A program made the position numbers and the translations under genes. From Mycobacterium sp. (GTDB lineage Bacteria; Actinomycetota; Actinomycetes; Mycobacteriales; Mycobacteriaceae), in assembly GCA_964203005.1 (NCBI GenBank), contig CAXNKV010000001.1, positions 102,712-166,711 on the forward strand: DNA of 64,000 nt, read 5' to 3'. Of this stretch, positions 38,337 to 40,160 are shown piece after piece (position 1 is the stretch's first letter; each line of letters begins with the position of its first letter). The notes under the pieces are model-generated. The model was not told where the DNA came from, made no database searches, and was given only the letters and a program-made list of their open reading frames with translations.

Positions 38337-40160
38337 ATGGCTCCGAAACGCGAAAAGGTCCGCAGCCCAGCGGGTCTGGTCGCCGAACTGACAGCCGAGA
38401 ACAAACTGCTCGCCCGCCGGTTGGAGCGGGAGCGGAAGATCCGTCACGAGGCGGAGGACATCGCCGAACGCGGACTGCGCGACCTCTACCAGAAGCAACG
38501 CGATCTCGAGGTCCTCTTCACTATCACCATCATGGCCAACCAGTCCGATTCGGTCTCCGAGGTGCTTGCTTCCGCCCTGAAGTACATCTGCCACTTCACC
38601 GGGTGGCCCGCGGCGCACGCCTACATCATCAGCGGCGAAGGTGCTGACCGCCGGATGCGGCCGACCGGAATCTGGCATCACGGCCCAGGCCTGGATATCT
38701 CCGAATTGCGCTCCGCCACAGTGGAACTCGAATTCACCCCCGGGGTGGGCCTGCCGGGTCAGGTTTGGGAATCGGGCGCACCGGTCTGGTTTGACGACCT
38801 GGCTACATGCGACAACTTTCTGCGCAAGGACAGCGCCCTGCGGTCAGGGATGCGGATGGCGTTTAGCACCCCGATTCTGGTCAGATCCGAGGTTGTGGGG
38901 TCGCTGGAATTCTTCGGCGCCCACCCGATGCCCGAAGATGACGCCCTGCTGAGCCTGATAGCCAAGGCCAGCACCCAATTGGGCCGCACCATCGAGCGGG
39001 AGAGAAATGAGACCCTGCTCGCCGGAATCGCGATCGATAACGCCCGGCTCTACGAGCAGTCCCGCGAACGCCTGACCTGGATCGAAGCCACCCGTGATAT
39101 CGCCACCGAACTGTTGGGCGGCGACGAACCGGCCCGGGTATTCCAGCTCATCGCCGATTCGGCGTTGCGGTTGACCCAGGCGGATGCGGTGCTGGTGGCC
39201 GTGCCCAACAACACCGCGGTAGCCGCGTCCGAGGTGGACGAACTGGTGGTGGTCGGGTCGGCGGGTTCGGCTGGCACCGGCGCAGACGCCGCGCCGACCG
39301 GTCTGCCGGTCAGCATCTTCGGGGCTGTCCTGACCGATCGAACGCCTCGGCTGCTGCCGGCGCTCACCGATGCGCCGCCGATTCCCGGCGCGGGCCCGGC
39401 AATGGTGCTGCCGCTGCGAACGACCGAGACCGTTGCCGGCGTCGTGGTGGTCCAGAAGCGTCGAGGTGCCCCGGAGTTCACCGACGACCAGTTGCAGATC
39501 ATGGCGACTTTCACTGACCAGGCGACACTGGCCTGGCAGTTGGCCAACACCCAGCGCCGGATGCGCGAACTCGACGTGATCGCCGATCGCGAACGGATTG
39601 CGCGCGACCTGCACGACCACGTCATCCAGCGGCTGTTCGCTGCCGGCCTGTCGCTGCAGGGCGCCAGCCAGAGTGTCGGGTCGCCGCAGGTGCGGACGCG
39701 TCTGGACGATGTCGTCGATGAGTTGCAGGGCGTGATCCAGGAAATTCGAACGACGATCTTCGACCTGCACGGCGGATCCCAGGGAACCACCCGACTGCGC
39801 CAACGACTCGATCAGGCGATCGCGGCGTTTTCCGGATCTGGACTTCGTACCACCCTGCAGTTCATCGGCCCGCTTTCGGTGGTAGAGCCGCCACTCGCCG
39901 ACCATGCCGAGGCGGTGGTGCGCGAAGCAGTCAGCAATGTGGTGCGGCACGCGGGCGCTACCGCTCTCACCGTTACCGTGCGGGTCGAGGACGACTTCAG
40001 CATCGAGGTGCTTGACGACGGGTGCGGTATGCCCGCGATCGTGACGCCCAGTGGGCTGACCAATCTCCGCGTCCGCGCCGAGGAGGTCGACGGACATTTG
40101 ACCATCACCGAGGCGCCGGGTGGCGGAACACTCCTGCACTGGTGGGCTCCGCTGGTCTGA
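38337..40160 (+). CDS. DevS/DosT-like sensor histidine kinase (coiled coil-GAF-GAF-HisKA_3-HATPase) lacking the haem-type GAF-A
   Basis: 607 aa. From NARLYEQSRERLTWIEATRDIATELLGG onward it is co-linear with DevS (GAF-B, H-box RIARDLH426DHVIQRLF, ATPase GLTNLRVRAEE). The N-terminal 225 aa are a coiled coil plus an unrelated GAF (GLPGQVWESGAPVWFDD). Confidence 0.9.
   Translation: MAPKREKVRSPAGLVAELTAENKLLARRLERERKIRHEAEDIAERGLRDLYQKQRDLEVLFTITIMANQSDSVSEVLASALKYICHFTGWPAAHAYIISGEGADRRMRPTGIWHHGPGLDISELRSATVELEFTPGVGLPGQVWESGAPVWFDDLATCDNFLRKDSALRSGMRMAFSTPILVRSEVVGSLEFFGAHPMPEDDALLSLIAKASTQLGRTIERERNETLLAGIAIDNARLYEQSRERLTWIEATRDIATELLGGDEPARVFQLIADSALRLTQADAVLVAVPNNTAVAASEVDELVVVGSAGSAGTGADAAPTGLPVSIFGAVLTDRTPRLLPALTDAPPIPGAGPAMVLPLRTTETVAGVVVVQKRRGAPEFTDDQLQIMATFTDQATLAWQLANTQRRMRELDVIADRERIARDLHDHVIQRLFAAGLSLQGASQSVGSPQVRTRLDDVVDELQGVIQEIRTTIFDLHGGSQGTTRLRQRLDQAIAAFSGSGLRTTLQFIGPLSVVEPPLADHAEAVVREAVSNVVRHAGATALTVTVRVEDDFSIEVLDDGCGMPAIVTPSGLTNLRVRAEEVDGHLTITEAPGGGTLLHWWAPLV

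Follow-up and report, generated by a model that had tools for sequence, protein, structure and literature searches.

A mycobacterial DevS-type kinase that carries the N-terminal module of H-NOX partner proteins and is encoded next to an H-NOX gene

The sensor kinases DevS and DosT are model haem-GAF gas sensors controlling mycobacterial dormancy. A related histidine kinase of 607 residues is encoded on a 64,000-nucleotide stretch of a Mycobacterium sp. genome assembly (GenBank GCA_964203005.1, contig CAXNKV010000001.1, positions 102,712 to 166,711 of the forward strand), hereafter the window, to which all coordinates without a locus prefix refer. Sequence comparisons confirmed this kinase as a chimera of a foreign N-terminal module and a DevS transmitter; a gene for a stand-alone H-NOX haem sensor lies between it and devR. 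The best overall explanation, which we consider probable, is a devRS operon with a cassette swapped in place, the kinase of which would be controlled by the H-NOX protein via the N-terminal module. The elements concerned are the following.

37766..37792, no strand: 5' breakpoint of the replacement (DNA alignment with canonical devR-devS loci; homology extends to the devR stop codon and is then lost)
37793..38329, plus strand: stand-alone H-NOX haem sensor, 178 residues (Pfam HNOB, 5.7e-38, over residues 2-160)
38330..38336, no strand: 7-nt spacer from the H-NOX stop codon to the kinase ATG (read from the sequence; also 7 nt in the GGDEF-EAL-type locus L007)
38337..40160, plus strand: chimeric sensor histidine kinase, 607 residues (open reading frame [ORF]; Pfam, PDB matches, identity profiles)
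38367..38543, plus strand: long N-terminal amphipathic helix, residues 11-69, the proposed H-NOX docking element (AlphaFold2; most conserved part of the module across phyla)
38415..38489, plus strand: signature motif RRLERERKIRHEAEDIAERGLRDLY, residues 27-51 (regular-expression match)
38547..38996, plus strand: non-haem GAF domain, residues 71-220 (Pfam GAF_2; Foldseek matches to generic GAFs; alignments)
39006..39020, plus strand: 3' junction, residues 224-228, NETLL (sliding identity profile and junction alignment)
39021..40157, plus strand: DevS-derived part, residues 229-607, with the His426 codon at 39612-39614 (identity to HPPM-bearing DevS; PDB entries 2vjw, 3zxo and 3zxq; Pfam)

Domain architecture of the kinase

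Positions 38337-39030 encode residues 1-231 of the kinase ORF. Pfam assigned GAF_2 to residues 71-220 (3.6e-19), GAF to residues 266-399, HisKA_3 to residues 418-478, and HATPase_c to residues 522-606. Residues 1-70 gave no Pfam match, and neither a transmembrane or further N-terminal domain nor GGDEF or EAL was found by Pfam in the protein, which is thus a soluble histidine kinase adjoining a stand-alone H-NOX gene. Canonical mycobacterial DevS proteins that bear the haem-ligand motif HPPM share 66-72% identity with residues 229-607, which comprise the inter-GAF linker helix, GAF-B, HisKA_3, and the ATPase domain. The second GAF domain matched GAF-B of Mycobacterium smegmatis DevS in the PDB (2vjw, 2.4e-31, residues 264-417), and the C-terminal half matched the ATPase domains of DevS (3zxo, 1.2e-42, residues 484-606) and DosT (3zxq, 1.3e-36). 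The phospho-accepting His426 is present in the context RIARDLHDHV, as in a DevS-type transmitter.

The homologues of the kinase fall into two groups. Residues 236-607 were searched against 5.8 billion proteins, and both halves of the kinase were then aligned by BLAST with the best 120 homologues. The first group consists of approximately 45 clusters (from ENA, JGI, Logan, and NCBI) whose complete members have 606-632 residues, mostly 607, and whose N-terminal parts are 69-99% identical to that of the window kinase; none of them contains HPPM. The second group has the canonical length of 547-584 residues, carries HPPM at approximately residue 121-160 in every member, and is 66-72% identical in the C-terminal part. 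Residues 1-225 of the window kinase found no BLAST match in 67 of 68 canonical proteins, the exception being 34 residues of P0085 at E = 0.87.

The haem-ligating proximal histidine is His149 in DevS and His147 in DosT. HPPM is absent from the window kinase, and Arg169 aligns with the haem histidine of DevS. In the AlphaFold2 model of residues 1-240 (predicted local distance difference test, 84.6), a GAF fold stands between two long helices, an N-terminal one at residues 11-69 and a C-terminal one at residues 202-239. When this model was compared with the PDB by Foldseek, generic GAF domains were returned and GAF-A of DevS or DosT was not among the top 50 matches, which is why we assign the new GAF domain to the same superfamily as DevS GAF-A, but not to its orthologues.

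These results bear out the principal claims of a sequence-only reading of the DNA, which had proposed a module swap in the kinase, a C-terminal span co-linear with DevS through GAF-B, the H-box with His426, and the ATPase domain, an N terminus free of the DevS haem-ligating context, and an H-NOX gene 7 nt upstream. That reading had called the N-terminal GAF domain unrelated; the domain is indeed not orthologous to GAF-A, and alignment found neither orthology nor the conserved histidine, but "unrelated" goes too far for two members of one superfamily.

Junction and in-place replacement

To locate the transition between the two halves, the window kinase was aligned with canonical DevS proteins and with GGDEF-EAL proteins whose genes adjoin H-NOX (12 of each), and a sliding identity profile was calculated over the alignment. 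Identity to the GGDEF-EAL group is approximately 0.4-0.7 across most of residues 11-220 and at most 0.17 once the sliding window lies beyond residue 210, whereas identity to DevS is 0.00-0.39 before residue 220, 0.75-0.82 over residues 231-290, and 0.23-0.94 thereafter. The crossover thus lies at residues 223-229, within about six residues (...TQLGRTIERER, NETLL, AGIAIDNARLYEQSR), six to twelve residues earlier than the position near residue 235 given in the sequence-only reading. The three rows of the alignment read ...LIAKASTQLGRTIERER-NETLL-AGIAIDNARLYEQSRERLTWIEATRDIATELLGG for the window, ...TQLGRVIERDxAxxRLHDALHDxLTGL for the GGDEF-EAL proteins, and ...EALAAA-AGIAIDNARLYEQSRxRQSWIEATRDI for DevS. 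Because of this position, the splice is placed inside the long helix leaving the first GAF domain.

One could argue that no swap took place and that the N-terminal GAF domain is the orthologous DevS GAF-A, diverged rapidly after loss of the haem. The order N-extension, GAF, GAF, HisKA_3, ATPase is collinear with DevS, and residues 1-250 alone gave weak HMMER matches to GAF-A of DosT and DevS (E = 0.016-0.7), with some common beta-strand motifs, although matches at this level reflect generic GAF similarity. We regard this explanation as extremely unlikely, given that identity jumps from approximately 0.15 to approximately 0.8 in roughly six residues, that the N-terminal part is 55-69% identical to the N termini of GGDEF-EAL and PAS-PP2C proteins, that GAF-A is missing from the top 50 matches of Foldseek, and that the H-NOX gene arrives along with the module.

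The flanks of the operon were compared with two canonical loci, L031 (Candidatus Mycolicibacterium alkanivorans) and L032, which have the order PfkB, universal stress protein (USP), DevR, DevS (577 residues); in L031, DevS is followed by a USP gene on the minus strand, a trehalose-phosphatase fusion, and a nitroreductase gene on the minus strand. The corresponding features of the window are the following.

36252..37088, plus strand: USP, 278 residues (Pfam Usp, 8.7e-25; 63-74% identity to the USP preceding devR in L031 and L032)
37118..37765, plus strand: DevR-type response regulator, NarL/LuxR class, 215 residues (Pfam Response_reg and GerE; 92% identity to canonical-locus DevR)
40120-40569: DUF4267 ORF, 149 residues, overlapping the 3' end of the kinase gene by 41 nt (86% identity to the L032 counterpart)
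40566-41456, minus strand: USP of the downstream flank (69% identity to the L031 counterpart; Pfam)
41601-42818, plus strand: trehalose-phosphatase-like OtsB of the downstream flank (57% identity to the L031 counterpart; Pfam)
42815-43822, minus strand: Acg-type nitroreductase of the downstream flank (73% identity to the L031 counterpart; Pfam)

Since USP-DevR upstream and DUF4267, USP, OtsB, and nitroreductase downstream match canonical devRS loci, the swap happened in place. DNA homology to these loci is lost right after the devR stop codon, which sets the incoming segment at approximately 37766-39020, that is, the H-NOX gene, the 7-nt spacer, and about 228 codons. Judged by these alignments, the 5' third of devS gave way in place to a 1.25-kb cassette (H-NOX gene, spacer, and the first 223-228 or so codons of a partner gene). 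The same flanks bear on the direction of the event, on which the chimera by itself is silent: a resident operon of H-NOX and its partner might instead have captured the DevS transmitter and devR. This we consider very unlikely, as both flanks of the window are canonical devRS flanks and the neighbours of mycobacterial H-NOX/GGDEF-EAL loci are unrelated.

In a neighbour-joining tree of the C-terminal part, cut by alignment column, a single split (bootstrap 142/200) sets all chimeras apart, which is consistent with a single event within mycobacterial DevS. Ratios of nonsynonymous to synonymous substitution rates (dN/dS) between the window and three other chimera loci (L002, L004, and L005) are 0.13-0.35 for H-NOX, helix, GAF domain, and C-terminal part alike, indicating that every piece is under purifying selection. 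Every genome that carries the chimera is metagenome-assembled, and frameshifts occur in some related contigs (L001 and L022), so that a false joining of two unrelated contigs during assembly or binning comes to mind. The probability of such an artefact is close to nil: the same junction recurs in the approximately 45 protein clusters of the chimera group, which stem from projects and assemblers independent of one another, as well as in the genome bins L002-L005, and the reading frames are intact, with dN/dS of about 0.2-0.3, on either side of it.

Distribution and output partners of the N-terminal module

Residues 1-223 are 55-69% identical to the N termini of GGDEF-EAL proteins encoded next to H-NOX in other Mycobacteriaceae, and 29-43% identical to betaproteobacterial ones; by this measure, the H-NOX/GGDEF-EAL operons of other Mycobacteriaceae are the closest relatives of the cassette. 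A scan for the module with one genome per species yielded 29 loci, and in 28 of them an H-NOX gene lies directly upstream (Mycobacteriaceae, Betaproteobacteria, Acetobacter). Four lake-derived, species-level genome bins of Mycobacteriaceae (L002-L005) have the same DevR, H-NOX, chimera layout as the window. Genome bins with the chimera include NZ_JAEMSG01 and JAPLAO01. One of them, L005 (CAMCWJ010000075.1), is titled a 'Bifidobacterium breve' genome bin, yet it holds a mycobacterial devR-H-NOX-chimera locus with a DevR 91% identical to that of the window; its taxonomic label looks wrong.

In 14 loci the module is joined to GGDEF-EAL; these belong to Mycobacteriaceae (the isolate Mycobacterium sp. 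M26 among them), to Betaproteobacteria, and to unclassified bins of the Actinomycetota. The other outputs in genome loci are GGDEF alone (Acetobacter), a PP2C/SpoIIE phosphatase, and PAS-PAS-PP2C. Overall, at least eight outputs of the module were recorded (GGDEF-EAL, GGDEF, PAS-GGDEF-EAL, PP2C, PAS-PP2C, HisKA kinase, hybrid kinase, and DevS-type kinase). An exhaustive profile search returned 398 representative clusters of the module family at E < 1e-30, many of which start with the same helix. Ten helix-bearing representatives that were looked up are from uncultured bacteria and have generic names only.

H-NOX genes stand directly upstream of genes for helix-GAF-PP2C (SpoIIE) phosphatases and helix-GAF-PAS-PAS-PP2C proteins in L027 (10001-11383), L029 (9926-11389), L030 (9902-11350), L011 (9980-13039), and L013 (10001-12973); these five loci are in genome bins of Mycobacteriaceae and other Actinomycetota. 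We know of no description of a serine/threonine phosphatase as an output of H-NOX. In environmental sequences, helix-GAF segments adjacent to H-NOX are fused to classical HisKA/HATPase_c kinases (L033:4034-5356, L038:2041-3441, L041:3967-5355, and L037:869-2440); one of these, a hybrid kinase, also has a receiver domain. The same helix-GAF N terminus might be present in the HnoK kinases characterised so far.

Two H-NOX partner genes are broken by several frameshifts (L001:8001-10028 and L022:9377-10595). In the metagenome contig L001, H-NOX is followed by the frameshifted module-GGDEF-EAL gene. The frameshifts of both contigs are likely long-read assembly errors, and the gene calls split one helix-GAF-GGDEF-EAL protein, giving for example the 229-residue 'stand-alone' P0004. 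A variant helix, ARLASERKARVEAEEIAEHTLRDLY, occurs in L043 (1-345) after a short ORF ending in ...AAHYGETVTIEQPIYMNREDDRCILEISFSR, a sequence whose likeness to H-NOX is confined to the C-terminal part of the latter and which may be what is left of a truncated H-NOX.

Helix and GAF domain in relation to H-NOX

Residues 27-51 of the window kinase match the helix motif RxxRERxxRxxAExIAExxxRxLY. A metagenome scan based on conserved GAF motifs of the broader subfamily (four-sequence alignment) yielded 80 loci. H-NOX is upstream in 12 of them, which are exactly the 12 whose N-terminal GAF domain is preceded by this motif; helix and H-NOX are jointly absent from the remaining 68 of 68 (Fisher p = 2e-14), where the GAF domain sits behind PAS, HAMP, or other segments. 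The 12 H-NOX-linked loci extend the range of outputs to HisKA kinases, a hybrid kinase, and PAS-GGDEF-EAL.

Divergence data point in the same direction. Measured against the window, the identity of H-NOX has a correlation of r = 0.91 with that of the helix and of r = 0.75 with that of the GAF domain. In a Mantel comparison of all pairs among 38 loci, H-NOX correlates at 0.85 with the helix and at 0.59 with the GAF domain (partial correlations, 0.81 and 0.44). Specifically, the PP2C loci L027-L030 are 67-74% identical to the window in H-NOX and 67-74% in helix residues 18-60, but only 13-18% in the GAF domain. On these comparisons, the element most tightly tied to H-NOX is the helix, not the GAF domain. 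The sequence-only reading had supposed that sensing is delegated to H-NOX and that the new N terminus is its docking site. Both parts of this idea gain strong comparative support from the 28 of 29 genome loci, the 12 of 12 and 68 of 68 metagenome loci, and the co-divergence, with the refinement that, within the new N terminus, it is the helix that goes most closely with H-NOX.

The chief competing explanation accepts the swap but takes the new GAF domain itself as the sensor, of a small molecule or of redox state via Cys85, His94, and Trp90, with H-NOX being an accessory or acting on another surface, such as that of the DHp/ATPase region, or on another protein. The GAF motifs C85-x-F-T-G-W-P-A-A-H94 and G-L-P-G-x-V-W are conserved, with C85, F87, W90, H94, G138-L-P-G141, and W144 near-invariant across the family; the same GAF subfamily is common inside multidomain sensors without H-NOX (68 of the 80 loci), and GAF divergence keeps its partial correlation of 0.44 with H-NOX divergence. 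Set against this are the PP2C loci, where helix and H-NOX remain together beside a very different GAF domain, and the fact that the link to H-NOX goes with the helix. Furthermore, the stand-alone H-NOX proteins characterised so far directly regulate the product of the adjacent gene (review, PMC8846402). All told, a sensing GAF domain seems to us an unlikely explanation, albeit one that deserves more attention than the other alternatives.

Several points weigh against control of the kinase by H-NOX through the helix, or against the history proposed for it. The strongly conserved, pocket-like GAF motifs (C85, W90, H94, GLPGxVW) may bind a ligand of their own. The helix motif used for the table of 12 and 68 loci was written after the sequences had been inspected, making the table partly post hoc, and presence of the helix is confounded with the N-terminal position of the GAF domain. 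The mirror-tree correlations are inflated by shared phylogeny, and the bootstrap value for a single origin of the chimeras is only 71%. Finally, no H-NOX was detected in the 20-kb locus of L017, which encodes a helix-GAF-GGDEF-EAL paralogue (9914-12331). L017 shares the genome bin HKST-UBA42 with L015, whose locus has H-NOX; the L017 protein could be served in trans by the L015 H-NOX or be an orphan.

In its broadest form, the proposal is that stand-alone H-NOX proteins in general dock to the helix of approximately 45 residues (RxxRERxxRxxAExIAExGLRDLY), which would be a portable motif that defines a hitherto unrecognised partner class with at least eight output types, PP2C among them. The DevS chimera would then be a natural experiment in which grafting of helix and GAF domain suffices for control of a foreign kinase and the DevR regulon by H-NOX and nitric oxide (NO). 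On the present comparisons, our opinion of this generalisation is evenly divided.

The H-NOX protein

The best solved relatives of the window H-NOX are 4u99 (2.2e-35) and 2kii (7.1e-35), two Shewanella H-NOX proteins. The protein has the HNOB fold together with the proximal His102, Pro115, and the haem-propionate motif YxSxR (Tyr131-Ser133-Arg135). Leu140 follows five residues after Arg135 and is assumed, by numbering, to be the equivalent of the distal, hydrogen-bonding Tyr140 of Thermoanaerobacter tengcongensis H-NOX. Because a leucine stands where O2-binding H-NOX proteins, on this assumed numbering, have Tyr140, the protein most likely binds NO and excludes O2.

A cluster of Cys138, His160, Cys163, His165, and Cys171 aligns with C-terminal residues of Shewanella H-NOX and presumably resembles the zinc site of the Shewanella and Vibrio proteins. 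This zinc site has been implicated in haem-independent redox sensing by Vibrio cholerae H-NOX. Given the presumed resemblance, oxidants may be a second input to the window H-NOX.

Proposed mechanism

The comparisons show how the kinase is built and where its halves join, from which families donor and recipient came, that the replacement was made in place, that the parts are under purifying selection, and that the module co-occurs and its helix co-varies with H-NOX; that the two proteins bind each other, that the helix is their surface of contact, that NO is the ligand, and in which direction regulation works are what we infer. The kinase keeps the DevS transmitter (inter-GAF helix, GAF-B, HisKA_3 with His426, and ATPase) and its cognate DevR, with the haem GAF-A lost and replaced by the long helix containing RRLERERxIRxxAExIAExGLRDLY and the subsequent non-haem GAF domain. 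In the proposed mechanism, NO would bind to the H-NOX haem, the residues His102, YxSxR, and Leu140 in place of the distal tyrosine suggesting NO over O2. Liganded H-NOX would then alter its contact with the N-terminal kinase helix, probably a dimeric coiled coil, and the change could run through the GAF domain and the C-terminal helix 202-239, which is spliced directly onto the GAF-A/GAF-B linker of DevS. On arrival at GAF-B and the DHp helices, the signal would modify autophosphorylation of His426, and the resulting shift in DevR phosphorylation would change expression of a dormancy-type regulon.

NO activates DevS/DosT signalling in Mycobacterium tuberculosis, and NO-bound H-NOX inhibits the characterised kinases of the HnoK type. 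As the DosR regulon of M. tuberculosis is induced by NO, our guess by analogy is that NO-bound H-NOX activates the window kinase or relieves its inhibition.

Flanking DNA of the operon

The H-NOX and kinase genes, separated by the 7-nt spacer, are probably co-transcribed and translationally coupled. The DUF4267 ORF is also found downstream of canonical devS in L032 and is recognisable in L002, and it is therefore probably a real gene of the dormancy neighbourhood. Upstream, synteny stops at the USP gene, because L031 and L032 have PfkB and phosphoribosyltransferase genes where the window has a type I fatty-acid synthase gene (3063 residues, 26439-35630, minus strand). This gene is divergent from, and directly upstream of, the USP-devR operon. 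The 620-bp gap between them contains a perfect palindrome, AAAACCTACT-TTTG-AGTAGGTTTT, at 36049-36072, which could be an operator site, and a GC-rich hairpin at approximately 36148-36186.

The DosR-box pattern GGGACYNNNGKCCC, with one mismatch allowed, is not enriched in the window (3 found versus 13 expected by chance). DosR-box-like half-palindromes are present at 41540-41553 (GTGACCAATGTCCC, in the divergent promoter gap between the USP gene and otsB) and at 43860-43873 (GGGACTTACGTCTC, upstream of the nitroreductase gene). Although these two lie in promoter-like gaps, the sites lack statistical support and are for this reason not taken as evidence.

Comparison with known systems

A 2022 review mentions that Mycobacteriaceae have H-NOX homologues, as yet uncharacterised, and says that there is no report on an H-NOX protein of a Gram-positive bacterium (PMC8738867). 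Our literature searches found no description linking H-NOX with DevS or DosR, or of a helix-GAF module of H-NOX partners. In the chimera, the haem sensor of DevS has been removed and the same transmitter and DevR are wired to what appears to be a separate sensor, the H-NOX protein. The clean junction reveals the piece that travels with H-NOX, namely the signature helix and GAF domain, and hints at the way in which H-NOX sensors may be connected to different signalling enzymes. How a stand-alone H-NOX protein recognises and regulates such diverse partners is a structural question, for which the helix offers a short candidate interface. The junction also offers a natural graft point to those who engineer NO-responsive kinases, and the PP2C phosphatases would be a new H-NOX output. 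As read from the genes, the locus suggests that NO, not O2, is the input to a dormancy-type regulon in planktonic lake mycobacteria.

Among the closest known systems are the DevS (Rv3132c)/DosT (Rv2027c)-DevR (DosR) systems of M. tuberculosis and M. smegmatis, with which the window agrees in the locus, its neighbours, the transmitter, and a cognate DevR in operon context (92% identical to that of canonical Mycolicibacterium loci); solved domains of DevS and DosT are also the best matches of its kinase in the PDB. Unlike DevS and DosT, the window kinase lacks the haem GAF-A with its proximal histidine and has the signature helix and a foreign GAF domain instead, and a separate H-NOX gene lies between devR and the kinase gene. 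With the H-NOX/HnoK pairs of Shewanella oneidensis and V. cholerae it shares a stand-alone H-NOX encoded directly upstream of a cytoplasmic histidine kinase, the H-NOX being closest to 4u99 and 2kii; its transmitter, however, is of the HisKA_3/NarL class with DevR as the partner, whereas the environmental H-NOX-linked helix-GAF kinases are of the HisKA type. The H-NOX-associated cyclic di-GMP enzymes (SwDGC/HaCE of Shewanella woodyi, Lpg1057 of Legionella pneumophila, and Dgc1 of Dinoroseobacter shibae) have the same operon layout, H-NOX followed by its partner, but the window output is a DevS kinase and not GGDEF/EAL, and likeness of the module is known for the mycobacterial and betaproteobacterial GGDEF-EAL relatives. 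Soluble guanylate cyclase offers a conceptual analogy only, in that an H-NOX haem domain acts on a catalytic output via helical coiled-coil elements; there, the H-NOX domain belongs to the same polypeptide, with PAS and a coiled coil coming after it, whereas in the window H-NOX is separate and the adaptor consists of helix and GAF domain. The window kinase keeps the DevS transmitter, locus, and partner in an arrangement like that of H-NOX/HnoK, and its newest element is the putatively portable helix of H-NOX partners.

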